A stretch of DNA of 13,525 nt from Fidelibacterota bacterium. GTDB lineage: Bacteria > Fidelibacterota > Marinisomatia > Marinisomatales > TCS55. The DNA lies in contig JBHHTW010000044.1 in the NCBI GenBank assembly GCA_046861385.1, positions 1 through 13,525 of the forward strand, read 5' to 3'. This document shows, one piece after another, positions 1 to 13,525 of the stretch. Below the pieces are notes generated by a model. It was not told the DNA's origin, did no database searches, and saw only the letters and a program-made list of their open reading frames with translations. Every line of letters starts with the position of its first letter. The first letter of the stretch is position 1. The position numbers and the translations under genes were made by a program.

Positions 1-33
1 TATTAAATGGAAATAATTAATTTGAGGTTCAGG

Positions 34-65
34 AAATCCCCCTTTTGAAAGGGGGTTTGGGGGTT
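34..65. repeat. GC-rich REP-like palindrome CCCCCTT-TTGA-AAGGGGG followed by a second G-run; possible terminator downstream of lhgO
   Basis: Stem CCCCCTT (38-44) pairs with AAGGGGG (49-55) around a 4-nt loop, followed by TTTGGGGGTT (56-65). It lies about 100 bp downstream of the lhgO stop in otherwise AT-rich DNA. The U-tract on the minus strand is weak (ATTTCCT). Confidence 0.55.
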
Positions 66-160
66 ATATCAAACATTGGGAAAATGCACTGATTGTTTAC
101 TCAACGATCTTTGAACAACAACCAAGTAAATGGGTAAACGAACCAAAAATCTGATTGTAC

Positions 161-1345
161 TTATAAATAATTTGTAATTTCTTTCGCAATGGCAAACGAC
201 GCCGTTGCTGCAGGAGAGGGCGCATTCAATACATGAATGGCCTGCTCGTTTTGAATAATGTGAAAATCATCCAGTAATTTCCCTGTAGATGAAAGAGCTT
301 GGGCCCGGACACCCGATCCGCCCGGACTCAAATCATCTGCTGTGATCTCGGGAATCATTTTCTGTAAAGCAGCAACAAACGCTTTTTTGGAAAAGGAGCG
401 TACCATTTCCCCCAATCCCGTTTTCCAGTAAGGTTTTGCCATTTTCCAAAAAGGATAGAAAGTCAGAGTCTCCAGCAATTCAGGCAGATTGATATTGGAT
501 TTATGATAACCCTCCCGGGCAAAAGCCAGAACAGCATTGGGTCCTGCTTCAATTTCACCATTTAATCTTCTCGTGAAATGAACGCCTAAGAAAGGAAATT
601 TGGGATCCGGAACCGGGTAAATCAGGTTTTTTACTAAATAACGGCTTTCTGGTTTAATCGTATAATATTCTCCCCTGAATGGAATGATTTTCATGTCCGG
701 TTTGGCACTGCTTAACACCGCTATTTTGTCCGTATACAGCCCTCCGCAGTTTATCAGCATTTTACCATGGTATTCATCTTTGGCGGTGGATACAACTGTT
801 TCGCTCCTTTTTGATTGAATGTCATCTGCTTTTGCAGAAAATATCATTTTTCCACCCCGTATTAATATGTCGTTTTTCAATGCATCCGCTACTTGACTAT
901 AATCCACAATGCCCGTTTCAGGACAATGAATAGCTTTAATTCCGGACACATGCGGTTCCATTTCATTCAGTTGTTTAGAATCAATCAAAGATAGACTGCC
1001 GATTCCGTTGGCTTTCCCCCTTTCGTATAGATCATCTAGCCTTGTTAATTCAGTTTCATCCGTTGCGACGATGACTTTTCCGCAGATCTCAAAAGGGAGT
1101 TCATGTTGGATACAAAAGTCCTTTAAAAGTCTGATTCCATTGCGGCAGGTACGGGCTTTTTTTGATCCGGGTTGATAATAAATACCGGAATGAATCACAC
1201 CGCTGTTGTGCCCTGTTTGATGTAAGGCCACATCTGTTTCTTTTTCCAGAATAAGAAGGTTTGTATCCGGTTTTTCTCTCAGTATAGTATACCCGGTTGT
1301 TAAACCAATTATTCCACCACCAATAATAATAACGTCATATTTCAT
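161..1345 (-). CDS. lhgO: L-2-hydroxyglutarate oxidase (LhgO/DAO-family FAD-dependent oxidoreductase)
   Basis: N-terminal Rossmann motif DVIIIGGGIIG, then HQTGHNSGVIHSGIYY, PFRGEYY, IYPVPDPKFPFLGVHFT, GPNAVLA, GVRAQA and C-terminal NAPSPAATAS. Start placed at ATG 1345 (MKYDV) rather than TTG 1393. Confidence 0.93.
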   Translation of the reverse strand: MKYDVIIIGGGIIGLTTGYTILREKPDTNLLILEKETDVALHQTGHNSGVIHSGIYYQPGSKKARTCRNGIRLLKDFCIQHELPFEICGKVIVATDETELTRLDDLYERGKANGIGSLSLIDSKQLNEMEPHVSGIKAIHCPETGIVDYSQVADALKNDILIRGGKMIFSAKADDIQSKRSETVVSTAKDEYHGKMLINCGGLYTDKIAVLSSAKPDMKIIPFRGEYYTIKPESRYLVKNLIYPVPDPKFPFLGVHFTRRLNGEIEAGPNAVLAFAREGYHKSNINLPELLETLTFYPFWKMAKPYWKTGLGEMVRSFSKKAFVAALQKMIPEITADDLSPGGSGVRAQALSSTGKLLDDFHIIQNEQAIHVLNAPSPAATASFAIAKEITNYL

Positions 1346-1495
1346 CACTAAATTTAACTTAAATCGGCAACAACAATGTTCTACAGTTATCAAATAAGAT
1401 CAGGTTTCATGCTGGTTTTTTGAGCAGTATGATCCGATTATTTCTAATGTTATTGGGTATTTCTTTTTAAATTGATTTATTCAGTCGGCGCAAAT

Positions 1496-1530
1496 GATTT
1501 ATTATTTGTAAATAAATATTGTAATAAATC
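1496..1530. promoter_or_regulatory. Perfect 9-bp inverted repeat GATTTATTA-N17-TAATAAATC; candidate operator
   Basis: Arms at 1496-1504 and 1522-1530 are exact reverse complements. The right arm overlaps the predicted -35 element. Confidence 0.45.
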
Positions 1531-1547
1531 CGAATAAACATTAAACT
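1519..1547 (+). promoter_or_regulatory. Putative sigma70-type promoter of the polysaccharide operon
   Basis: TTGTAA (1519-1524), a 17-nt spacer, then TAAACT (1542-1547), ending 24 nt before ATG 1572. Confidence 0.5.
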
Positions 1548-1571
1548 AACCTGAATTAATTAGAATAAACC

Positions 1572-3518
1572 ATGAAAAAACTCGAAAGAATTATATTATT
1601 TCTTCTGATTCCCCTTCAGATATCGTTTGGCCAATCCATAGAAGAGCTGAAGCAGGTACAAAAAGCCTACAATGATATTGTTCGCATAAAACAGGCAGAA
1701 GAAGCCTTGGCAAAAGAATTAGGCAGAGATGAAGTGCTCATCGATGAAGTACCCACAAAAGTGTTAGTCAAACCCCAGGATATACTTTTATATTATTCGG
1801 AAAAAATGGCGAGGATTCAAACGGAATTAAAGGACCTGGAAGATTTAATACCCCTCATCAATAAACCAGATAAATTACCATTTTACGGCTATAATTATTT
1901 TTTCGTTCGTGATACACTTACCTATTGGCAGAATCGTCCGGTTTCTGATAATTATCCCCTCGGCCCCGGAGATGAAATCATTATTTCATTATGGGGTGAA
2001 GCTGAACATTTAGTTAAACAAACCATTTCAAGGGATGGGTCAATTATTGTTGAAAACGTGGGTAATCTCTTCCTGGGGGGTAAAACAATCAATGAAGCGA
2101 AACCATATATTCAAAACAGATACGCAGCTGTTTATTCCACGATTCGCGGGAAAAAACCGTCGACATTTTTAGATTTATCCCTTGGAAAGCTAAAAGGGTT
2201 AAATGTGCAGATAACCGGTGCGGTGAATGCCCCCGGACTCTACGCAATCAATTCTTTGGCGACGGTAAATACTGCTTTAACACAGGCAGGCGGCATTGAT
2301 ACAACCGGTTCACTGAGAACCATTGTAATCTTGCGTAACGGTTCAGCGGTAGATACTTTGGATTACTACGCGTTTTTAAATGGAAAGTCCCGTTTAAATG
2401 ACAGTCGTCTTTTGGAAAGAGATATAATTCATGTGCCGAATCGTAAAAGTATAGTCACCATAGATGGCGCCATATGGCAGCCTGCTCATTTTGAAATGCT
2501 TCCCGGTGAAACCATCAAGGATCTGATTGGATATGCCGGAGGTGTTCGGCCGAATGCCGGTAATACATTTGTGTTAGTTCACCGGTACAATAATAATCAG
2601 CAAGCTGAATATGTTTCTTCCGAAAATATCAATAATATTCTCATAGAAAATGGGGATAGCCTCTATATCCCAATAAAGCAATTACCATTATTAACCGTTT
2701 CAATTGCCGGTGAAGTTGCCAGCATTGGGACGTACCCCTGGTTCGCCGGTATGACTCTTATGGATTTACTCCAGGTTGCAGGCTTTGAATATGAGAAAGC
2801 ATATTCTTCTGCCAACATGAATGCAGCAGAATTGGTACGCTTGCAAATTGATGGTGGTGGATTTAAACCCGTCACCGTGGATGTATCAGGTCTTTTATCA
2901 GGTAATGAAGAATCAAATATCGAATTATATCCTTACGATCGTCTTACGATTCCCAGGAAAAAAGATTTAATGGCTTCTAGAATAGTTGTGATCCAAGGTG
3001 AAGTATCTGCCCCTGGGACCTACCCACTGCTCCATAATCAGGAATCATTAAATTCTTTGCTAAAACGCTCTGGCGGTGTAACCGAATTGGGATTTAAAGA
3101 GGGAATTTCCATCCTTCGCGATGGCTATCATGTGGGCTGGTCTAACGAAAATGCGTTTCTTGTGCCCGGGGACACTGTAGAAGTTCCGATAAAAACCGGT
3201 ACCATATATGTCACGGGCGCTGTCCACAATCCCGGTGCCTTCACCTGGGAAAAGGGAAAATCAATCAAATATTATCTACGACTCGCAGGGGGAATTAATA
3301 CCCTGGGAGATCCCAAGCACATTTTCATTCAATATCCCAATGGACAGGGAGCGCCTGTAACCTTTTGGCATAAACCGGTTGTATTGGAAGAATCTAAAAT
3401 CCATGTAAGTGGTAAACCTTTTGCCGCACAAACGGCCACTACCTCATTGGACATTATTCAGCAGTTTGCCGGAATTGCAGGCTCTTTGGCAACGCTTGTG
3501 TTGATAATGAACAACTAA
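1572..3518 (+). CDS. Polysaccharide export protein (OPX; Wza/KpsD-like) with Poly_export domain and multiple SLBB domains
   Basis: Sec signal peptide (MKKLERIILFLLIPLQISFG-Q). Poly_export motif YPLGPGDEIIISLWG...ISRDGSI. Repeated SLBB motifs: ITGAVNAPGLY...AGG, IDGAIWQPAHF...AGG, IAGEVASIGTY, IQGEVSAPGTY...SGG, VTGAVHNPGAF...AGG. Hydrophobic/amphipathic C-terminal helix. Confidence 0.9.
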   Translation: MKKLERIILFLLIPLQISFGQSIEELKQVQKAYNDIVRIKQAEEALAKELGRDEVLIDEVPTKVLVKPQDILLYYSEKMARIQTELKDLEDLIPLINKPDKLPFYGYNYFFVRDTLTYWQNRPVSDNYPLGPGDEIIISLWGEAEHLVKQTISRDGSIIVENVGNLFLGGKTINEAKPYIQNRYAAVYSTIRGKKPSTFLDLSLGKLKGLNVQITGAVNAPGLYAINSLATVNTALTQAGGIDTTGSLRTIVILRNGSAVDTLDYYAFLNGKSRLNDSRLLERDIIHVPNRKSIVTIDGAIWQPAHFEMLPGETIKDLIGYAGGVRPNAGNTFVLVHRYNNNQQAEYVSSENINNILIENGDSLYIPIKQLPLLTVSIAGEVASIGTYPWFAGMTLMDLLQVAGFEYEKAYSSANMNAAELVRLQIDGGGFKPVTVDVSGLLSGNEESNIELYPYDRLTIPRKKDLMASRIVVIQGEVSAPGTYPLLHNQESLNSLLKRSGGVTELGFKEGISILRDGYHVGWSNENAFLVPGDTVEVPIKTGTIYVTGAVHNPGAFTWEKGKSIKYYLRLAGGINTLGDPKHIFIQYPNGQGAPVTFWHKPVVLEESKIHVSGKPFAAQTATTSLDIIQQFAGIAGSLATLVLIMNN

Positions 3519-3535
3519 GTCATTAATTTTATTGA

Positions 3536-5173
3536 ATGAATAATACTGAGCATTACAATATATTTCAATGTGGCCTGTTATCTGCCCATTTTGATCATAT
3601 AAACAAATTCAAGCAAACTGTTGTTGATTACGGCATTAATGGTACGCCATTTAAGACCGCAAAATATCTTCCCTTCCGAAAGATAATCTGCCTGATATTA
3701 TTTATTTTCTGTTTTATCTCAATATCTTTTCCTCAAGTTTACACCCCAGCTGATCCATATTATTTATTAGAATTGGATAGAGCTTTATTTGATAGTGACA
3801 CCCATGCCCAGACGACCATTATAAGACCTTTTTACATTGATAATGGTCAGCAATGGTCCATTTGGTTTCGAAGTGAATACTACCTGAATGATAATGCGCC
3901 TAATCAGGAAAATATGGATGTCAGATATTTCGGCAAAGGGGTCGGCATGTTCAACAGTTTACACATGTCCTTTTATAATGATTTTATAGCGTTTAGTTTT
4001 GAACCTTATATGCTGCAAGGGGAAAATAAAGCGGTGAAAATATATGACCGTCCGGGATCATTTGCTGTATTAAACGATACGCCAAAAAATCTCAATACAA
4101 AATTTTCAAAAGGAGGTCTTCGGGATGCTCAGGTGTATCTCCATTTTAAAGGATTTGGAATAGGGATTTCAAACGCTGGTATGTGGTGGGGCCCCGGAAT
4201 ACAGGGAACCCTGTCTATGACGAATAATACGATTGGGTTTCCCCATTATATGCTGGGTACCATTCGGGAATTGCGCTGGAGGAATATAGGCTTTATGGGT
4301 CGTTATACGTTTGCTGAGATTGCACGAAAACCTTATGTGGATCCGACATATTTCACATCTCTTACTGGAATAATTTCGTTTTATGTAAATCCCATTATTT
4401 CTATTGGCTTTAGCCGAAATTATCTTTCAGGAGGAGTGGATGTGGGGACTCCTTGGACAGCGGAAAGAGCAGCCCTGATTGTTTTTGAAAGCTTCCTCAT
4501 TGAAAATAATTATATAAATGATTATACCATTGCCGGTCATGATCCGTTCGATCAAACATTATCCGGCTATTTTTCCATGTGGTATCCAGATTCAAAACTG
4601 AAATTGTATCTGGAAATTGGTTTCAATGATAATCGTCAGAATTTCTGGGATTTTGTTGTTCAGCCGGACCATGCAATGGCCACCATCATTGGGTTTCAGC
4701 ATTATAAATTTTTAGGAAATAAAAATCTCTTATTTGGATTTGAATATGCAAACTTAATTAATGGCCGCATGCAAGTATTTCGAGTGACACCACCTTGGTA
4801 TAACAGGAGCCATTACGATCATTTTTCTTACGAAGGGCGACGCTGGGGAGCGCACAGCGGCTCCGATTCCGATGATTTGTTAATATTTTTCGGATGGATG
4901 GGGGATAAATGGACTATCATTCCCATGTGGAATTATGAGCGTCACGGTGTTACAACTTATCGTCCCAATGAAATCAAATCAGAAATACGTTTGGATACCC
5001 GATATCAATTAACATCAGATATGCAATTAGGCGTTTATTATGAATGGCAGTATGAAGCGCATTTAGGCTTTCCAAAAGATCATTATTTTATTAATGAAAT
5101 TACGGGAGAACGCAGAACACACACACTCATACTGCGGTTTGAATATACAATTAAGAATTATATGAAAAACTAA
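3536..5173 (+). CDS. wzi: Capsule assembly Wzi-family outer-membrane beta-barrel protein
   Basis: WWGPGIQGTLSMTNN motif as recalled for the Caps_assemb_Wzi family, Y..H....Y.GRRWG segment, and alternating aromatic beta-strands. It follows the OPX gene. The start is uncertain because the hydrophobic signal-like stretch begins only at about residue 50. Confidence 0.75.
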   Translation: MNNTEHYNIFQCGLLSAHFDHINKFKQTVVDYGINGTPFKTAKYLPFRKIICLILFIFCFISISFPQVYTPADPYYLLELDRALFDSDTHAQTTIIRPFYIDNGQQWSIWFRSEYYLNDNAPNQENMDVRYFGKGVGMFNSLHMSFYNDFIAFSFEPYMLQGENKAVKIYDRPGSFAVLNDTPKNLNTKFSKGGLRDAQVYLHFKGFGIGISNAGMWWGPGIQGTLSMTNNTIGFPHYMLGTIRELRWRNIGFMGRYTFAEIARKPYVDPTYFTSLTGIISFYVNPIISIGFSRNYLSGGVDVGTPWTAERAALIVFESFLIENNYINDYTIAGHDPFDQTLSGYFSMWYPDSKLKLYLEIGFNDNRQNFWDFVVQPDHAMATIIGFQHYKFLGNKNLLFGFEYANLINGRMQVFRVTPPWYNRSHYDHFSYEGRRWGAHSGSDSDDLLIFFGWMGDKWTIIPMWNYERHGVTTYRPNEIKSEIRLDTRYQLTSDMQLGVYYEWQYEAHLGFPKDHYFINEITGERRTHTLILRFEYTIKNYMKN

Positions 5174-5212
5174 ACCGGAATGAACCATACCGATTGATAA
5201 GGAATATAAAAA

Positions 5213-6442
5213 ATGAGAAGGAATATGAAAAAACCAGAAATTGTATCACTCATATTGATTACACTTTTATCTTTCTCCTGTAAAAAAATAGTATATGTTG
5301 AGAATAATCCACCAGTGAATACCGGATTCATGAGGACATTTGGGACCGATTTTTATGATTATGGATGGGGTGTCGATGAAACTTTTGATGACGGATTTAT
5401 TATTGCAGGGGCAAAACAATCCAGAACAGACTTAACCAAGGATGCTGTTTTAATCAAAACAGATGAGAAAGGATTTGGTGTATGGGAAAAGAATTATGGC
5501 GGAACTGGAGATGAGGAATTTTATTCAGTAAAACAATGTCTAAACGGGGGCTTTATTGCTGTGGGTTATACATCCTCTCACGGAGATTTTAAACAAGTAT
5601 ATGTAGTGAAAACGGATTCTTATGGCACCATAGAATGGGAAAAAATCGATGGCGGTCCGAATCTGGATGTTGGGAATGAGATTATTGAAACGAGAAGTGG
5701 AAATTTTATCATTGTTGGTTTTACGAATTCTCCCGGCATAAGTCATGGGAATCATGACATTTGGCTTCAGAAAATTGATAATAAAGGCAATAATATTTGG
5801 AGAAAAGCGTATGGTAAAATAAATCATGAAGTCGGGTATGACGTCAGGGAATTGGAGAATGGAAATTTATTGGTATTAGGATATAAAGACTTTTATGGAG
5901 ATGCGGGGAAAGATACTTATCTGTTTAAAACAGATTCTATCGGAGGCGTGCTATGGGAAAAGACATTTGGCTCTTCTGGCGAATATGATGAAATCGGCTA
6001 TTCCATTGACGAAGTTTATCCTTCGGGATATGTGATTTGCGCATCTACAAATTCTCGAGGCAACGGGTGGTATGACCCCCAAATTATTAAAATAGACTAT
6101 GATGGAAATATGGATTGGTCCGGTATTTATAACGGTAGTAGCTATGGATATACACGATGGGTATCGACCCCCACATATGACGGAGGTACGATCATAGCCG
6201 GAACGACAACACATTTTAATGGCAATAATGAAGATATATATATGATTAAAATTGATGCAAGCGGCCAACAACTCTGGAATAAATCATTTGAGGGAAAAAG
6301 TTCTGATTTGGGTTGGGCGGTGAAAGAAACCCGTCTCAATAACTTAATCCTCGTGGGCTCTACAAAATCATATGGGCGTGGATTATATGATATTTTTCTT
6401 ATGAAAACTGATGAATATGGACATTATGACTTCGATAATTAA
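5213..6442 (+). CDS. Lipoprotein with seven ~52-aa repeats (probable 7-bladed beta-propeller)
   Basis: AAGGA SD-like sequence upstream of ATG 5213. Lipobox-like LSFS-C23 (Cys codon at 5279). Seven repeats of W.K..GG...D.G..V.E...G.II.G.T.S.G...D.YL.KTD..G from about residue 39 to the C-terminus. Confidence 0.8.
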   Translation: MRRNMKKPEIVSLILITLLSFSCKKIVYVENNPPVNTGFMRTFGTDFYDYGWGVDETFDDGFIIAGAKQSRTDLTKDAVLIKTDEKGFGVWEKNYGGTGDEEFYSVKQCLNGGFIAVGYTSSHGDFKQVYVVKTDSYGTIEWEKIDGGPNLDVGNEIIETRSGNFIIVGFTNSPGISHGNHDIWLQKIDNKGNNIWRKAYGKINHEVGYDVRELENGNLLVLGYKDFYGDAGKDTYLFKTDSIGGVLWEKTFGSSGEYDEIGYSIDEVYPSGYVICASTNSRGNGWYDPQIIKIDYDGNMDWSGIYNGSSYGYTRWVSTPTYDGGTIIAGTTTHFNGNNEDIYMIKIDASGQQLWNKSFEGKSSDLGWAVKETRLNNLILVGSTKSYGRGLYDIFLMKTDEYGHYDFDN

Positions 6443-6498
6443 CTTTATTGGCTTGATAAATATTATTGAACAAGTTCCGCTCTAATAATCAAAAACGC

Positions 6499-7737
6499 AT
6501 GACACAGAATAAACAAGAGACTGTAAAAGACATTATGTTCAAAGTAATGCAGCATTTTGGCTATCGTCACCAATACGAGGTGGCTAAGTATTTTAATGTT
6601 ACTGCCCAGACTTTATCCGGATGGATAAAAACAAATACAATTCCCACTAAACATCTGGTTAAATACACGCAAGAGATTGCCGAACCAGACAACGATCAAC
6701 GAGTTAATATTGAAAAAGAAAAGATTTTTGTAGAACTTCCCATGTCGTCCGATCGTCGAGAATTTTCTGAGAAATTAATTTCTATTACAAAAATTCGATC
6801 TTTACTGGCAAAATCAATTCGGCTCCTTATTCTGCTGCCGGTTCTTTTTTCGAGTATATCAGCTGTATATGTTTTTTTTATTGCCGACCCTGTTTATTCA
6901 TCAATATCCAAAGTTCTTCCTATTGCAGAAGATAATAATGCTCTTTCAGGAATATCAGGAATGGCCTCACAATTTGGGTTTAATATTCCAACGGGCGTCG
7001 GTAGTGTAATTCCATGGGACGATCTCTACCCTGAAATTGTTCATAGCGAGAACTTAATGCGGGTAATTGTCCAAAAAAAAATAAAGTCCGAAAAATACGG
7101 CCCAGATATAACACTTCTTGATGTGTTGGCATCCGAAGGCAGGTATGACGATGAAGAACACGATGTAAAATTAAAAATGGCTGTTGAGAATCTAAAAAAA
7201 ATGATCACAGTTCAAAAAAATAGACTTTCCCCGATTGTCACCATTGTTGTAAATGGAATAGAACCCCAGTTTGCAAGCGATATTGCATCGGCGGTTCTTG
7301 ATGAATCTGGAAAAATCCTTCGTAATCTTAAAACAAAACAGATAACTGAGAAAAGACTATTTATCGAAAACCGCATTGTGGAAGTTCGGGCATCCCTCCT
7401 GGAAGCAGAAAATGCAGTGGAAGAATTTCGCCATACCAATCGAAATATCAATCAGTCTGCATTTTTATCTATTGAAGAAAATCGACTAACAAGAGAAGTT
7501 GAACTTCAAAATAGTCTTTATGTTACATTGAAAACCCAATACGAACAGGCCAAGATAGAAGAAGTAGAAGAGGCAACATTGATTCAAATTATTGATGGGC
7601 CATTGAAACCGTTGAAAATGATATCCCCTAAACCATTCATTACAATATCTCTTTCATTCTTTTTTGGATTTATTCTTGCGCTTTTTACTGTGTATTCCCG
7701 AGAGTATATCTTTAGCTCTGATAAATTAACACCTTGA
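6499..7737 (+). CDS. Polysaccharide co-polymerase (Wzz/GNVR type, no kinase domain) with an N-terminal phage CI-repressor-like HTH domain
   Basis: HTH-like segment IMFKVMQHFGYRHQYEVAKYFNVTAQTLSGWIKTNTIP. TM1 (~6823-6885) is followed by PVYSSISKVLP. Periplasmic coiled coil (FIENRIVEVRASLLEAENAVEEFR...LKTQYEQAKIEE), Pro-rich IQIIDGPLKPLKMISPKP, then TM2 (7636-7695). ATG 6499 is preferred over TTG 6466. Confidence 0.85.
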   Translation: MTQNKQETVKDIMFKVMQHFGYRHQYEVAKYFNVTAQTLSGWIKTNTIPTKHLVKYTQEIAEPDNDQRVNIEKEKIFVELPMSSDRREFSEKLISITKIRSLLAKSIRLLILLPVLFSSISAVYVFFIADPVYSSISKVLPIAEDNNALSGISGMASQFGFNIPTGVGSVIPWDDLYPEIVHSENLMRVIVQKKIKSEKYGPDITLLDVLASEGRYDDEEHDVKLKMAVENLKKMITVQKNRLSPIVTIVVNGIEPQFASDIASAVLDESGKILRNLKTKQITEKRLFIENRIVEVRASLLEAENAVEEFRHTNRNINQSAFLSIEENRLTREVELQNSLYVTLKTQYEQAKIEEVEEATLIQIIDGPLKPLKMISPKPFITISLSFFFGFILALFTVYSREYIFSSDKLTP

Positions 7738-7769
7738 TAATATGACATCAAAAAAATACACAAACGATG

Positions 7770-7799
7770 TTGAAAATCGGTTCTAAATCAAAATAAAAT
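7770..7799 (+). promoter_or_regulatory. Putative internal sigma70-type promoter upstream of wzx
   Basis: TTGAAA (7770-7775), an 18-nt spacer, then TAAAAT (7794-7799), within the 101-bp AT-rich gap 7738-7838. Confidence 0.35.
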
Positions 7800-7838
7800 T
7801 AATTCAATCTTACAAATTAATAACATTTAACGCTGAAT

Positions 7839-9107
7839 ATGCGTTTGTTTAATACAAGCCAACTCGGAAATAAATTATATAAAGAAACACTTGCATACGT
7901 TTTTACAAAAGCCTTTCCAGGTATAACAGGATTATTATCTGTTATTTTATTTTTTCGACTGGTGGGGCCGGTGGAATATGGGCGCTTTAGCCTTCTTTTT
8001 TTATTTGCAAATATGTGTTCAGCGTTCAGTTTCGGCTGGTTGAACCAGGCCATTTTACGATATTATTCCAAGGTAAGTAATCATAGCCGTCTCTTAAATA
8101 TTGCATCCAAAGGGTTTGCTTTATCCGGTGTATTTTGCATTTTATTGATTGCAATATTCCAATGGTTTTCCTTTCCACAAAATTCATCAATTTTAATGCT
8201 GATTATTTTGAGTATAATGATAGGGATTTTTTCACTGTCAAATATTTTTTATCAGGCGAGACAGCAACCGCTTATGGTGGTGAAACTAACGTCGTTACAA
8301 GGGTTGTTATCCGTTGGAATTCCGTTGATATTTATTTGGCTGTTAAGCAAGGAGCACACCAGCATCATTTGGGGTTTTGCTCTGGCATATGCTCTACCGG
8401 TTTTACTTTTATTTAAGTATTGGAATAATGAAATGCCAAAAAATAAAAGCAATACGCATGAGGTTCAGCTTTTTTCATTTTTTAGATATGGCTGGCCGCT
8501 ATCATTTTGGTTCGTGGCAAACATTTCATTACGATTTTTGGATCGATTTTTTATCGAAAGGTTTTTGGATACATCTATCATGGGTTCGTACGCGAGTTTT
8601 GTCGATTTAATCACTAGAATCTTCTCTTTAATTCTTTTCCCGATTACAATGGCTCTTCATCCTAGAATCATGAATAAGTGGAACAATAATAATTTAAAGG
8701 GTGCTGTTAGAGATTTTAAAAAGGGTTTAAAATACCAACTGGTTATTTTCGCGATTTGTTTATCAATATTTTATCTTTTTGACCAACAAATTTTTCAAAT
8801 TATTATTCGGTTAATTCCAGAAGTTGATTTATCAATAAAGCCCATATTGATTCCTGTGTTAATTGGCGGTTTTTTATGGCAGTTTGCCTTATTGATTCAT
8901 AAACCACTTGAGCTGAGTGAAAAATCCGGAATCATGCTTTTGTGTATTAGTGTTTCGGTCCTTGTGAATATTTCAGGTAACATCATATTTCTTCCTATTT
9001 ATGGCATTATTGCGACTGCCTATACTATGGTAGTGTCGGGAAGTGTATATATTATTATGGCCGTTTTATTTGCAGGCGATCTTTTAAATAAAATCAAAAA
9101 GATATGA
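7839..9107 (+). CDS. wzx: Oligosaccharide flippase (Wzx, MOP superfamily)
   Basis: Many TM segments. Motifs GPVEYGRFSL, FGWLNQAILRY, FFRYGWPL, FLDRFFI...MGSY and LPIYGIIATA. Confidence 0.88.
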   Translation: MRLFNTSQLGNKLYKETLAYVFTKAFPGITGLLSVILFFRLVGPVEYGRFSLLFLFANMCSAFSFGWLNQAILRYYSKVSNHSRLLNIASKGFALSGVFCILLIAIFQWFSFPQNSSILMLIILSIMIGIFSLSNIFYQARQQPLMVVKLTSLQGLLSVGIPLIFIWLLSKEHTSIIWGFALAYALPVLLLFKYWNNEMPKNKSNTHEVQLFSFFRYGWPLSFWFVANISLRFLDRFFIERFLDTSIMGSYASFVDLITRIFSLILFPITMALHPRIMNKWNNNNLKGAVRDFKKGLKYQLVIFAICLSIFYLFDQQIFQIIIRLIPEVDLSIKPILIPVLIGGFLWQFALLIHKPLELSEKSGIMLLCISVSVLVNISGNIIFLPIYGIIATAYTMVVSGSVYIIMAVLFAGDLLNKIKKI

Positions 9108-10354
9108 GCGCCTACATTCCCCTCATTGTGTTGGGAGGCGCATCCTTGGTCATGCGAAAGATCTATAAGTCATGGTTCGCACCGGGGGCATTTTTCCCAT
9201 TAGCCTGGTTTTTTTTCATTTTAATACCAATGATATTTGCTCCTGAATTTCCATTTTATTTTTTTGGTTTGTGGGTCATTACGGCTATGGCTATAGCGTT
9301 TGCCGCTGGTTCTCTATTGGGGTATAATGAAGAGGAAAACTTGGAGAATAAAAAGTCTGAAATGGTAAAACCAATATCCGGATATAAATCAATTATCTCC
9401 TACTCAACATTGACGATGACAGGTTTATCGTTTTTGGGAGTGATTTTATTACTTCGCTTCAGTATGGAAAAGTTTCAAATGAATTTTTCATTATTCAGTC
9501 TATTTATATTACCAAGTAATATTACAGCAGAAAGATATAATGAATTATTGGTGTACCCTGTTTATTTGAAATTCTTTTTATATTTTCTTTTTCCGGCATC
9601 TCTGATTGCAGGAATAGGTTATTCACTAACCAATAAAAAATTACATTTTTTATACCTATCCCCACTATTTGTGTCCATATTAAAAGGGACATTGGAAACT
9701 ACGCGTTCAACAATATTATTATCCGTAATTCTTTGGCTGGCCGGATTTGCCGGTGGAAGAGTTATTACCCGTGATCATCTGCATCGGTTAATGGAAAAAA
9801 AATTATTGATATTCCTGACCTTAGCCGGTATTGCATTCACCTTTTTATTTATTGGATTGCAATGGATTCGGGAGGCGGGTGGAGATATAATCTTTTTAGT
9901 TATGATAAAAAGAATTAAGCTGTATTTTTTTGGTTATTTATCTGCATTTACTATCTGGGTAAAAAATATACGGGAACCAGGGCTGACATTGGGTCTGACG
10001 ACATTTGCCGGTCCGTTTAATATCCTGGGATTGATTGATCGGGAACTCGGCTTTTATTCCCACACCTTTGTTTATAATGGATCTTATACGAATGTTTATA
10101 CAGCATTACGAGGATTAATACATGACTTTTCAATTATGGGGTCTCTGCTTGTATGTATGGTAGCAGGGTTTTTATCAACAATATCATATTATAAATCATT
10201 ACGGGGGTTCGTTTTCTGGCTGATACCATTGACCATGTTTTATAGTTTCACTCTTTATTCACCACTGATCAGCGTATTTCATTATAATAGCATTATCATG
10301 GCTTGGGTAATTGTTTTTGCTATTTTTTTTATCAAACCAAGACTTAGGTTATAA
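9104..10354 (+). CDS. wzy: O-antigen/capsule repeat-unit polymerase (Wzy-like)
   Basis: Highly hydrophobic multi-TM protein with a late periplasmic loop TNVYTALRGLIHDFSIMG (NVYT...DFG-like motif). ATGA overlap with wzx. Confidence 0.78.
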   Translation: MSAYIPLIVLGGASLVMRKIYKSWFAPGAFFPLAWFFFILIPMIFAPEFPFYFFGLWVITAMAIAFAAGSLLGYNEEENLENKKSEMVKPISGYKSIISYSTLTMTGLSFLGVILLLRFSMEKFQMNFSLFSLFILPSNITAERYNELLVYPVYLKFFLYFLFPASLIAGIGYSLTNKKLHFLYLSPLFVSILKGTLETTRSTILLSVILWLAGFAGGRVITRDHLHRLMEKKLLIFLTLAGIAFTFLFIGLQWIREAGGDIIFLVMIKRIKLYFFGYLSAFTIWVKNIREPGLTLGLTTFAGPFNILGLIDRELGFYSHTFVYNGSYTNVYTALRGLIHDFSIMGSLLVCMVAGFLSTISYYKSLRGFVFWLIPLTMFYSFTLYSPLISVFHYNSIIMAWVIVFAIFFIKPRLRL

Positions 10355-10355
10355 A

Positions 10356-11192
10356 ATGGCAGAAATAGTATTCATCACTGTTAATTATAAGAATTCAGCA
10401 ATGACAGAGAGATTTGTTTCCAGTGTAAATAATTGTATAGATAATTCAAATTCATCAATACAGATTGTGGATAATCAGTCAACCAAGAAAAGTGCGGATG
10501 AACTGAATATAATCGGTGACAATTCTGTTGTTCCAATTAAAATTATTCCTTCTGAAAAAAATCGATACTATTGGGGCGGGGCGGCATTGGCTGTGGATAC
10601 AATATCATTTAACAATTCGGATGGTCCTTCTTGGATAATTATTGCCAATAATGATATTGTTTTTTATAAGGAAGATTTTATCACGAGGTTGAGTGGATTA
10701 AATCCAAAAGATTACCCCATTATTGCTCCGAAAATTACATTACAGGATACAGGAAAGAATCAAAATCCCCACTTGATTGACCCATTAACAATGTTTCATA
10801 AAATGTATTATTCGATTTATTATTCCCACTTTATTACTGCAAAATTGGTCCATAAAACAGGTCGGTTGATTCATAGTATTTTCACCGGTAAAAACCGTAC
10901 AAATTCTCTTAATAAAGAAATGAAAATATACGCTCCCCATGGTTCGTGTATTATTTTTTCAAAAGAGTATTTTCGTCAAGGAGGAAATATTGACGGTGGT
11001 TTTTCTTTTTATGGAGAAGAACTCTCTGTGGCAGAAATTGCCCGTGAGATCGATTTACCCGTAACATATATCCCCGATTTGGAAGTTCTTCACAACGAAC
11101 ACGCGTCCACAAGTTCCCGCGACTGGCTAACGGCGTATAATCAATCCAGAGAAACGTATCGATATTTAAGAAAAAAATACATTTTTAAGTGA
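10356..11192 (+). CDS. Glycosyltransferase family 2 (WbbL/rhamnosyltransferase-like)
   Basis: Motifs ITVNY, IVDNQS, IIIANNDIVF, HGSCIIF, GGFSFYGEE and VLHNEHAS. Start placed at ATG 10356, 1 nt after the wzy stop. Confidence 0.85.
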   Translation: MAEIVFITVNYKNSAMTERFVSSVNNCIDNSNSSIQIVDNQSTKKSADELNIIGDNSVVPIKIIPSEKNRYYWGGAALAVDTISFNNSDGPSWIIIANNDIVFYKEDFITRLSGLNPKDYPIIAPKITLQDTGKNQNPHLIDPLTMFHKMYYSIYYSHFITAKLVHKTGRLIHSIFTGKNRTNSLNKEMKIYAPHGSCIIFSKEYFRQGGNIDGGFSFYGEELSVAEIAREIDLPVTYIPDLEVLHNEHASTSSRDWLTAYNQSRETYRYLRKKYIFK

Positions 11193-12394
11193 TGAGAATT
11201 ATTTATCTCCATCAATATTTCAACACACCAGACATGCCCGGTTCAGTCCGTTCTTATGAGTTAGCCAGTAAACTGGTTAAAAGTGGACATGAAGTTCACA
11301 TGATTACATTAAAACAAGGTTCAAGCCAACAGTTACAGAAAAGATTTTCAATAGAAAATGGAATTAATGTTTACTGGCTACCAGTTAAATATTCTCATAA
11401 AATGGGGTTCCTTAAACGTGTTATTTCATTCTTAATATTCTCTGTTTATGCTGTGAAACAAGCTTTAAAAATTAATTCAGATTTGATTTTTGCTACGAGT
11501 ACTCCTCTCACTGTCGCCATACCTGCCCTTATAGTAAAGAAACTCCGCGGACTACCATTGGTTTTTGAGGTTCGCGATTTATGGCCTGCTATCCCCATTG
11601 CATTAGGTGAAATAAAAACACCTTTGCTGATTTACCTTTCTAAGTGCCTGGAATGTGTTGTTTATAAAGCTTCAAAGCAGATCATTGCACTATCACCCGG
11701 TATGGCATCCGGCATTCATTCTACAGGCATTCTGAAAGAAAAAATTACCATCATTCCGAATACTGCAGAATTAAAACGATTTTCGGTCCCTCATCAAATT
11801 GGAGAAAAGTTCCGAAATAAACATACTTGGATAAAAAATCGCCCATTAGTAGTTTATACAGGATCGTTAGGCCGAATTAATGGTGCTTCTTATTTGGTAG
11901 ATATGGCAAAAGCTATGCGTTCTATTTACCCGGATGTACGGTTTCTGCTTGCTGGTGATGGCCGGGAAAAGAATGTTGTGATTTCTTACGCTAAAAGAAT
12001 GGGTGTATACGAAAAAACAATGTTTTTTATTCCACCAGTTTCCAAACAAGAACTGCCAACGCTACTTTCTGCTGCGACTGTCTGTATGTCAGTAATCATT
12101 CCGGTTCCAGAGCTGGAACATAATTCGGCCAATAAATTCTTTGATGCTTTGGCGGCTGGACGTCCCATGATAATTAACTATGGGGGATGGCAAAAAATAA
12201 TTCTGGAAAATCACCGAGCAGGACTTGTTTTACCATCGAAGGATACAGACAAAGCTGCGCGTATGTTAGCTGAACTTTTAAATAATCAAGATAAGTTAAA
12301 AACTATGAACCGCGCTGCTCTGGACACTGCTCGCCAGTTTGATTTGGATGTTTTGGCAAATAAATTTCTATTAACAATAGAATCAGCAAATTAG
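11192..12394 (+). CDS. Glycosyltransferase family 4 (WbuB-like)
   Basis: Motifs LHQYFNTPDMPGSVRSYELA, FATSTPL, FEVRDLWP, YTGSLGRING and NKFFDALAAGRP. TGATG overlap with the GT2 stop (alternative start GTG 11189). Confidence 0.88.
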   Translation: MRIIYLHQYFNTPDMPGSVRSYELASKLVKSGHEVHMITLKQGSSQQLQKRFSIENGINVYWLPVKYSHKMGFLKRVISFLIFSVYAVKQALKINSDLIFATSTPLTVAIPALIVKKLRGLPLVFEVRDLWPAIPIALGEIKTPLLIYLSKCLECVVYKASKQIIALSPGMASGIHSTGILKEKITIIPNTAELKRFSVPHQIGEKFRNKHTWIKNRPLVVYTGSLGRINGASYLVDMAKAMRSIYPDVRFLLAGDGREKNVVISYAKRMGVYEKTMFFIPPVSKQELPTLLSAATVCMSVIIPVPELEHNSANKFFDALAAGRPMIINYGGWQKIILENHRAGLVLPSKDTDKAARMLAELLNNQDKLKTMNRAALDTARQFDLDVLANKFLLTIESAN

Positions 12395-12400
12395 ATAGAA

Positions 12401-13252
12401 ATGCCTAATCATAACAAAAACACTCTTCCCCATTGTCCTGTCTGTATGGAAAATAATTTTCTGAAATCCTTTACTTGGGCTAATCAGGAAATTATTTCAT
12501 GTAAGATCTGTGATCTGGATTATTGCAAAGAGATTATTCACAGGGACTTTGGTGCACAAACAACTGAAACCCCTAAAGAAAATCTGGCAATGTTAATGGA
12601 CACATTTGAAACCTGTAGAAGTATTGCAACTCAGCGTTGCCATGCACGACTCAATGCATATAAAAAATTAAAAGGTAGTTCAATCCATGATGTGTTAGAA
12701 ATAGGATGTGGCCCAGGTATCTTTTATGAACCTTTCACCAATGAAAAAATTGAGTGGACTGGACTAGAGATTAACCCTATGTGGTTAAAATGGGGTGCTA
12801 ATAATAATATCCCGATCGAAAATGGACTCATTTGTGATTATAAGGAACGCTTCGATTTGATTTTTGCATGCCAATTATTGGAACACTTCGAAAAACCACG
12901 CCAATTCCTAAAGGATATATTAGGTGCTTTACGTCCAGGTGGGTTACTACATTTTGAGGTTCCGAACCATAATTCTTTTGTATCGAACCTCAGAAAAATT
13001 TCACCGTTAATTTCCCATAAATACGGATGTATTCAACCTACGCAGCATATGCGTGCCTATAGTGCACAAACTTTGAATCACTTATTCAGTGATTTTCATA
13101 TGAATTTGAAACTATTATCTGCTTTCCCAAATGATCATAAAGTCTGGGGACAGGTTCGTGTGAAACAGCCATTAATTAATCGTATGGCCTTTAGAATTTC
13201 AGATTTCCTGGGTCGAGGAAGTCTTTTAGTGGGTATTGCACAGAAAAAATAA
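12401..13252 (+). CDS. Class I SAM-dependent methyltransferase with N-terminal CxxC...CxxC zinc ribbon
   Basis: CPVC...CKIC, then motif I VLEIGCGPG, FDLIFACQLLEHFEKP, LRPGGLLHFEVPN and a downstream His (QHMRAYS). Confidence 0.85.
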   Translation: MPNHNKNTLPHCPVCMENNFLKSFTWANQEIISCKICDLDYCKEIIHRDFGAQTTETPKENLAMLMDTFETCRSIATQRCHARLNAYKKLKGSSIHDVLEIGCGPGIFYEPFTNEKIEWTGLEINPMWLKWGANNNIPIENGLICDYKERFDLIFACQLLEHFEKPRQFLKDILGALRPGGLLHFEVPNHNSFVSNLRKISPLISHKYGCIQPTQHMRAYSAQTLNHLFSDFHMNLKLLSAFPNDHKVWGQVRVKQPLINRMAFRISDFLGRGSLLVGIAQKK

Positions 13253-13280
13253 ACAAAAATTTGAAAATTAATTTGACCAA

Positions 13281-13525
13281 ATGATAATACGATTCGATCA
13301 AGTTCTCAGTTGTATTCTTTTACTATTACTGGCCCCACTATATTTTATTTTAATAGTTTTGATTTTTGTAATGGATGGTCCTCCAATTTTTTTCAAACAC
13401 AAACGTCTGGGATACCTTAGCATCCCATTTACACTAATTAAATTTCGAACAATGACTTCCGGAAAATCCATCAGCTCCCATCATGATGAGTCAAGAATCA
13501 CATCGTTTGGAAAATTCTTAAGAAA
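13281..13525 (+). CDS. Small phosphoglycosyl transferase / initiating sugar transferase (Bac_transf, PglC-like), partial; runs off the window end
   Basis: Not in the ORF track. Manual translation gives MIIRFDQVLSCILLLLLAPLYFILIVLIFVMDGPPIFFKHKRLGYLSIPFTLIKFRTMTSGKSISSHHDESRITSFGKFLR, which contains the RFD...P membrane segment, KFRTM and RIT.FG.FLR motifs. Confidence 0.9.
   Translation, partial: MIIRFDQVLSCILLLLLAPLYFILIVLIFVMDGPPIFFKHKRLGYLSIPFTLIKFRTMTSGKSISSHHDESRITSFGKFLR

Follow-up and report, generated by a model that had tools for sequence, protein, structure and literature searches.

A predicted XRE/CI-type helix-turn-helix domain joined to a membrane polysaccharide co-polymerase in a family of uncultured marine Fidelibacterota

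A contig of 13,525 nt from a Fidelibacterota bacterium (JBHHTW010000044.1, assembly GCA_046861385.1, positions 1 to 13,525 of the forward strand; hereafter the window) was found to encode, at 6499..7737, a protein of 412 amino acids (P0001) in which a helix-turn-helix (HTH) domain precedes a complete polysaccharide co-polymerase (PCP). This gene and the other genes of the window described below lie on the + strand. The open frame, Pfam matches to Wzz, GNVR and Phage_CI_repr, and the homologues of the protein confirmed its architecture, which consists of a cytoplasmic HTH, a flexible linker, a first transmembrane helix (TM1), a complete PCP body and a second transmembrane helix (TM2). The fusion is a variant of two known kinds of protein, the PCPs and the transmembrane transcription regulators, and is confined to one uncultured marine family.

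The fusion open reading frame runs unbroken from an ATG at 6499 to a stop codon at 7735-7737. An alternative in-frame start, a TTG at 6466, would add 11 residues to the protein; the ATG at 6499 agrees with the N-termini of the homologues, which lie no more than a few residues from it. In a Pfam scan of the whole protein, Wzz (PF02706) matched residues 94-155, around TM1, with 30.1 bits against a cut-off of 25.5, and GNVR (PF13807) matched residues 329-402 with 40.6 bits against a cut-off of 27.7. An AlphaFold2 model of the full protein, with 75 homologues as input, had a mean predicted local confidence (pLDDT) of 77.9. The model opens with a four-helix XRE/CI-type HTH domain at residues 8-62 (6520..6684), which is followed by a variable cytoplasmic linker at residues 63-95 (6685..6783). 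The linker is predicted to be disordered (pLDDT 30-41 over the stretch 64-93), is poorly conserved and ranges in length from 19 to 42 residues across 75 aligned homologues. TM1, at residues 107-128 (6817..6882), is a helix in the model, with hydropathy windows of at least 1.6 at residues 99-115; it is oriented with its N-terminus inside, and basic residues lie on its N-terminal side. The periplasmic PCP domain spans residues 129-378 (6883..7632) and is made up of an alpha/beta base and a long helical hairpin, for which two long helices were modelled at 256-313 and 321-356. A Pro-rich stretch and TM2 occupy residues 379-402 (7633..7704), within the GNVR match, where the model has a helix at 379-408 and hydropathy peaks at 377-383. 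After TM2 there remains a cytoplasmic tail of about 10 residues, ending at residue 412 and without a kinase domain.

When the body of the protein was compared with the PDB by Foldseek, the structures retrieved were those of Wzc (9r6b, E 9.5e-11), KpsE (8tsh) and WzzE (8p3p), with E values from 9.5e-11 to 4.7e-6; TM1, the periplasmic domain and TM2 together constitute a kinase-less PCP. An initial annotation made from the nucleotide sequence had proposed an uninterrupted frame encoding an HTH at about 6520-6675, a linker and a TM1/co-polymerase/TM2 body, and frame, Pfam, AlphaFold2, Foldseek and hydropathy all bear out this description. Its further statement that co-polymerases normally have only a short cytoplasmic tail before TM1 agrees with the structural neighbours and with a paralogue in the same genome, which lack the N-domain and align with the fusion only from about residue 78-89.

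The four helices of the N-domain were placed at residues 9-20, 25-31, 36-45 and 50-61 with pLDDT of 85-94 over the full-length and isolated-domain models together and of 85-88 in the full-length model, and when the domain was modelled alone from 11 orthologues (mean pLDDT 85.8) they were unchanged. The HTH proper, defined with the help of residues invariant in 75 sequences, comprises helix 2 (residues 25-31), a turn and the recognition helix (residues 36-45), encoded at 6571..6633. It appears to follow the classic 20-residue HTH pattern, in which position 5 is Ala (here A29) and positions 10, 15 and 18 are hydrophobic (V34, L39 and W42). The orthologous N-domains matched HTH_17 in 11/11 cases and Phage_CI_repr (PF07022) in 9/11 at E<0.01. 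In the window's protein the Phage_CI_repr match covers residues 15-55, spans only positions 5-45 of the 65 in the model, and reaches 18.5 bits with the whole protein (cut-off 22); scanning residues 1-81 or 1-65 alone gave 22.2-22.9 bits. Of the families put forward initially, Wzz and GNVR were recovered above their cut-offs, and PF07022 was borderline, at about its cut-off with the isolated N-terminus and below it with the whole protein.

Structural comparison of the N-domain returned HTH domains almost all of a single class. The top Foldseek rows were HigA2, a Staphylococcus regulator, C.Esp1396I, 186 CI, DdrO, HipB, P22 c2 and the 434 repressor, with a TM-score for 186 CI (2fjr) of 0.63 normalised to the query. 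In a VIA-align comparison with 48,161 chains the highest Z was 6.0, in the range below 8 that the tool warns is common among small helical domains; nearly all 50 rows were XRE/Cro/CI DNA-binding domains, among them Aca10, HigA, RsaL, N15 Cro, TP901-1 CI, ImmR and P22 c2 at Z 4-6. For a domain of some 60 residues these TM and Z values are modest. In a sequence search of the N-domain against solved structures, HTH matches were weak (best E 0.28). The structural weight for the predicted HTH class lies in the consistency of one class among the neighbours rather than in the height of the scores. An HTH fold for the N-terminus, as initially suggested, is supported by four helices at high pLDDT and by XRE/Cro/CI neighbours, and the domain is predicted to adopt the XRE/CI-type helical HTH fold.

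The fusion and its recognition helix are retained among homologues. A first search returned 240 proteins, of which the 120 listed are 371-447 amino acids long, cover 89-100% of the query and are 41-83% identical to it; where the source names a host, it is Candidatus Marinimicrobia or Neomarinimicrobiota. The motif QTLSGW is present in 119/120 of the listed homologues, the sole exception, P0002, being an N-terminally truncated gene call on a 1.7-kb contig. For alignment 75 of the 120 were used, those left out being mostly near-identical cluster members and partial sequences. Y26, V28, A29, F32, T35, Q37, T38, L39, S40, G41, W42, P49 and K55 are invariant in 75/75 sequences, and K44 is kept in 74/75. 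The mean majority-residue fraction is highest in the HTH (0.77), followed by the periplasmic domain (0.71), TM2 (0.65), TM1 (0.50) and the linker (0.27). Comparison with the closest locus, L001, gave nonsynonymous over synonymous divergence (dN/dS) of 0.031/1.374 (∼0.02) for the HTH, 0.132/1.052 (∼0.13) for the linker and 0.096/1.255 (∼0.08) for the body, the HTH being under the strongest purifying selection within the fusion gene.

These data bear on whether the N-terminal region could be an artefact, produced by chimeric assembly or by a wrongly assigned start upstream of a true one at Met82, or else a decaying remnant. An internal ATG is indeed present at 6742, where it encodes residue 82, and in a second study the short contigs of a relative cover 6300-6625 and 6712-7029, with none bridging 6650-6800. 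Met82 is, however, a Met in only 1/75 aligned homologues, and the fusion recurs not only in 119/120 listed homologues but also at 11 independent loci of Marinimicrobia/Fidelibacterota reference genomes, of which two are single-cell genomes and one is a closed chromosome of 2.14 Mb. The whole fusion gene, junction included, is also spanned by Logan contigs of 3.7 and 4.3 kb, which may derive from the window's own sample. The interval 6650-6800, for which the initial annotation had asked that a chimera be excluded, is thus covered by the Logan contigs and left unbridged by those of the second study. Among the sequencing runs listed as containing the sequence, none was of RNA. With the HTH the most strongly selected part of the gene, an artefactual or decaying N-terminus was considered very improbable and was set aside.

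To trace the origin of the two halves, 1.84 billion representative proteins were searched with an N-domain profile, which gave only 118 matches at E<=0.001 and 54 at E<=1e-10. At E<=2.1e-17 all 12 matches of at least 200 amino acids continue into a PCP body, and most shorter ones stop within the linker or TM1, as fragments would; two matches depart from this pattern, namely P0136, which has an ABC-ATPase-like stretch before the HTH, and P0149. The next group of matches is without TM helices and without a PCP. Here P0168 and P0176 consist of an HTH, a coiled coil and a PAS fold, and exceed the Phage_CI_repr cut-off with 25.9 and 33.2 bits; a more distant match, P0193, is a repressor with CI_repr and Peptidase_S24. 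The window's genome has its own soluble paralogue of the HTH-coiled coil-PAS kind, a protein of 238 amino acids (contig C96, L013:1495-2211) assigned by an HTH match and a PAS-like fold. Its PAS_3 score of 23.2 bits is just under the cut-off, which its relative P0168 passes, and it is probably a one-component regulator. The paralogue is 48% identical to the fusion HTH over residues 8-61, and differs from the fusion family at positions 38, 41 and 44 of the recognition helix. Exposed positions of this helix are invariant inside the fusion family yet unlike those of the paralogue, which, judged from sequence, is the pattern expected of paralogous DNA-binding factors. For the other half, an HTH-less PCP of 358 amino acids in the same genome is 40% identical to the fusion body from residue 89 onward. 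Since both halves have separate relatives in the window's genome, the fusion arose by the joining of a lineage-specific regulator HTH to a resident PCP, with the linker as the seam.

The distribution of the fusion is narrow. Among 201 sampled genomes of the phylum, the N-domain profile identified seven fusion-length frames (413-442 amino acids) in six genomes, all from the window's family, of which they make up 6/20 with the window's own included; the question of how widespread the architecture is, raised by the initial annotation, is answered by this one family. Frames of 210-284 amino acids, corresponding by length to the soluble form, were found in 14 genomes of two families in the same sample, the domain content of this form being confirmed only for the window's own copy, P0168 and P0176. 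One genome of the window's family (G199) carries two fusion copies, with frames of 413 and 424 amino acids on contigs C12 and C50. The fusion is thus an innovation at the level of the family, and its carriers have ample representation in marine metagenomes (240 clusters). Longer proteins with the N-domain were also sought by a word-based search, in which 23 candidates were scored and nine matched, eight of them from the same fusion family (six with Wzz and GNVR, P0121 with Wzz only, and the truncated P0002); the ninth, P0123, is a protein of 143 amino acids with a PF01546 match.

The HTH-PCP architecture is already visible in databases, a possibility that the initial annotation had allowed for. 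Precomputed matches to PF07022 or PF12728 together with PF02706 exist for 6/120 of the listed homologues, and an ESM Atlas cluster of 260 members is automatically named for GNVR plus the CI repressor HTH. Source names of the homologues are hypothetical, Wzz/FepE/Etk domain-containing or exopolysaccharide-related. A full-text literature search found no paper on an HTH-co-polymerase fusion, nor on a Marinimicrobia/Fidelibacterota protein of this kind.

A second PCP with an N-domain, of 512 amino acids, is encoded elsewhere in the window's genome (G000, contig C80, L016:226-1764), with Wzz and GNVR over their cut-offs and a Wzy_C gene directly after it (L016:1764-3146). A conserved domain of about 60 residues precedes TM1 in this protein. 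Its sequence matches are weak, the winged HTH of Csa3 being reached at E 0.018 and an Lrp/AsnC protein at E 0.27; an Atlas model resembled HTH_24 clusters of the Lrp/AsnC type (TM-scores, normalised to the query, of 0.58-0.63), and Pfam CggR_N matched at E 0.01. These are leads only towards a winged helix. At least 637 homologues of the 512-residue PCP were found, the N-terminal motif being kept in 119/120 of those listed, and the winged-helix-like domain occurs in 37/201 genomes of the phylum, from at least 12 families, in frames of 393-598 amino acids, two short fragments excepted. If the winged-helix leads hold, an HTH joined to a PCP would be a recurring solution.

The fusion gene lies within a conserved Wzx/Wzy-type surface-polysaccharide locus. 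Upstream, the window encodes a Wza-like outer-membrane polysaccharide export protein (1572..3518; Poly_export and SLBB, syntenic in 7/11 related loci), a Wzi-like capsule assembly outer-membrane protein (3536..5173; Caps_assemb_Wzi, 44.4 bits against a cut-off of 30.1) and a predicted lipoprotein with propeller-like repeats (5213..6442). The lipoprotein has no Pfam family over its cut-off (PQQ_2 at E 6e-5 falls under it), and its gene stands directly upstream of the fusion gene in 10/11 related loci; locus L004 starts inside the gene, and extra copies occur nearby in L002 and L010. Downstream are a Wzx-type flippase (7839..9107; Polysacc_synt, 46.1 bits against a cut-off of 28.2, syntenic) and a multi-pass membrane protein (9104..10354) without a Pfam match, a candidate Wzy by position only, which adjoins Wzx in 8/11 related loci. 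The region 10311..13252 then holds the conserved orf293 (293 amino acids, no family) and two further genes assigned by Pfam and synteny, a GT4 glycosyltransferase at 11189-12394 and a methyltransferase at 12401-13252. The neighbour genes of the cluster keep an unchanged order in 10/11 related loci, and Wzx, candidate Wzy and GT4 follow the fusion gene wherever the contig extends, except that L002 is without Wzx and Wzy matches. Over window positions 161-12394, Wza and Wzi are 83% identical to those of L010 and the DAO gene 70%, and in the central block, which begins with the HTH-PCP gene, includes Wzx and ends with the candidate Wzy, identity is no more than 33-37%. A mosaic of this form is what a serotype-like exchange of cassettes between conserved flanks looks like. 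Three PCP genes are present in the window's genome (97.85% complete); a scan of it with TIGR01007 for a bacterial tyrosine kinase (BY-kinase) found none, the best matches scoring 65.5 and 41.8 bits against a cut-off of 108, and the better of the two being a ParA beside ParB.

The architecture suggests a transmembrane transcription regulator in which the PCP is the outer module and the HTH binds DNA, a reading to which we give about an even chance. The HTH would bind DNA, and the fusion protein would act as a regulator from the membrane. Solved PCP relatives form rings, and a PCP oligomer would provide multimerisation, the role of the C-domains in repressors or of the coiled coil and PAS in the paralogue; the assembly state of the polymerisation/export machine could then set the number of HTH domains able to engage operator DNA. 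Binding of DNA is inferred because the nearest relatives of the HTH are regulator-type proteins with PAS or Peptidase_S24 modules, because a C-terminal oligomerisation module follows the HTH in both the paralogue and the fusion, which is the standard layout of repressors, and because the exposed positions of the recognition helix are invariant in the family and different from the paralogue. It is further suggested by the presence of two different HTH classes on PCPs, for which DNA binding is the common denominator.

Several observations weigh against DNA binding by the fusion. No Foldseek match of the N-domain reached E<=0.001, its VIA-align Z values do not exceed 6, and Phage_CI_repr stays below its cut-off in the whole protein. 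The net charge of the HTH among the 75 homologues averages only +1.1 (range -2 to +5), and an invariant recognition helix would equally fit a conserved protein partner. The example of RodZ, as described in published accounts of that protein, indicates that a membrane-anchored XRE-type HTH can bind protein instead of DNA. Nor did operator searches provide support: the three intergenic regions of the window contained only AT-rich pairs as inverted repeats, palindromes with 5-mer half-sites in the non-coding DNA of 10 loci were shared by at most 3/10, equal to shuffled controls, and no conserved operator was found across loci upstream of the cluster or of wzx.

Other elements in the same regions were noted. 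An inverted repeat, AACGC-N7-GCGTT, at 7829-7845 of the window encloses the wzx start codon (7839) and recurs only in L001, the closest relative; it could be a translational hairpin. Upstream of the first export gene, similarity was confined to the window and the closely related L010, with about 100 nt upstream of wza (1470-1571) conserved, including an AT-rich tandem element, and this likeness may be explained by relatedness. A 10-mer upstream of wzx, AATTAATAAC, occurs unchanged in L003 and L004 and with a single mismatch in L008, and is absent from L005, L007 and L009; it was chosen post hoc, its control windows were mostly coding DNA, and it was rejected as unconvincing. A promoter and terminator scan gave counts no higher than in shuffles.

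The contact of RodZ with MreB is the HTH of RodZ itself. The fusion HTH might likewise be a protein-protein adaptor that does not touch DNA and that anchors the PCP/Wzy machine to something in the cytoplasm, for example a protein of the cytoskeleton or of cell-wall synthesis, a glycosyltransferase or a further regulator; we consider this possible, though doubtful. The layout of a cytoplasmic N-terminal XRE-type HTH, a linker and a TM helix is that of RodZ, whose cytoplasmic part interacts with MreB according to published descriptions, and the invariant face of the recognition helix, the near-neutral net charge of the HTH and the failure of motif scans to find an operator are all consistent with an adaptor. 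However, no HTH_25 (RodZ-type) match was obtained at E<=1, and the genome has its own HTH_25 protein elsewhere; moreover, the proteins most closely related to the domain are of regulator type and carry PAS or Peptidase_S24, and a second PCP carries a different HTH class, so that two recruitments for protein binding would be harder to explain than two for DNA binding. Alternatively, the protein might be a tethered precursor, in which a cut made by a protease within the linker or inside the membrane would free the HTH to work as a repressor or activator in soluble form. A long, disordered and variable linker would be a plausible protease substrate, and the nearest soluble relatives do exist as free regulators. 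This explanation is nonetheless unlikely, as the linker has no conserved cleavage motif (majority-residue fraction 0.27) and a freed HTH of 60 residues would lose its oligomerisation module.

Should the fusion act as a DNA-binding regulator, a broader and more tentative extension may be considered, in which the PCP ring of Fidelibacterota is a membrane-anchored, multivalent DNA-binding platform. CI/XRE and winged-helix HTHs would have been grafted onto it independently, replacing the missing BY-kinase as control module, and the ring would couple the state of polymerisation and export to transcription or tether the locus to the site of export. No route is known to us by which a Wzy-dependent polysaccharide machine signals its state to the cell, and the BY-kinase is the only known cytoplasmic control module in model systems. 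The window's lineage has no BY-kinase by TIGR01007 and has PCPs with HTH domains instead. If these HTHs bind DNA, a single protein would connect a polymer assembly machine directly to gene expression, and the transmembrane transcription regulators would gain a class formed by structural machines. Because the domain boundaries are clean and a soluble paralogue exists, the idea could readily be tested in vitro, though the hosts are uncultured. These hosts are abundant marine bacteria (SAR406), and their surface glycans therefore matter for ocean carbon flow and for interactions with phage and grazers.

Compared with known PCPs (Wzz/PCP-1, Wzc/PCP-2a and KpsE/PCP-3), the fusion has the same two TM helices around a periplasmic alpha/beta base and long hairpin, the same Wzz and GNVR signatures, and a gene placed beside Wza, Wzi and Wzx. 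It differs from them by a folded cytoplasmic HTH of about 60 residues on a tether of 20-40 residues before TM1, a region outside the alignment with solved PCPs and the in-genome paralogue (which begins only at about residue 78-89), and it differs from PCP-2a proteins (Wzc/Etk) in being without a C-terminal BY-kinase domain. With the N-domain of phage 186 CI (PF07022) and the XRE/Cro-CI HTHs it shares four helices and the same helix 2, turn and recognition helix, and intermediate sequences connect it to a repressor with CI_repr and Peptidase_S24; unlike in 186 CI, the HTH is followed by a membrane PCP in place of a soluble domain for oligomerisation or of the S24 kind, and the gene stands at a chromosomal polysaccharide locus rather than in a prophage. 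The soluble paralogue, with P0168 and P0176 elsewhere, belongs to the same lineage-restricted HTH subfamily, but has no TM helix and no PCP, and a coiled coil and PAS fold follow its HTH.

As far as published accounts of RodZ describe it, that protein likewise begins with a cytoplasmic XRE-type HTH, from which a linker leads to a TM helix, and it belongs to an envelope-synthesis machine. The fusion is unlike RodZ in its failure to match HTH_25 (PF13413) at E<=1, a separate HTH_25 gene lying on contig C15 of the window's genome. RodZ also has a single TM helix and a C-domain of its own, where the fusion has two TM helices and a PCP domain. With the transmembrane transcription regulators ToxR, TcpP, CadC and BcrR it shares a cytoplasmic domain of DNA-binding type and a TM region in one polypeptide. 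A survey of such regulators defines them operationally as proteins that combine a DNA-binding domain with one or more TM regions, and assigns two TM regions to 17% of those surveyed; Wzz has 0 occurrences in its main text (PMC10269533). By its predicted HTH and two TM helices the fusion falls within that definition, and it stands apart from these regulators in that its extracytoplasmic module is a structural part of a polymer assembly machine rather than a dedicated sensor.

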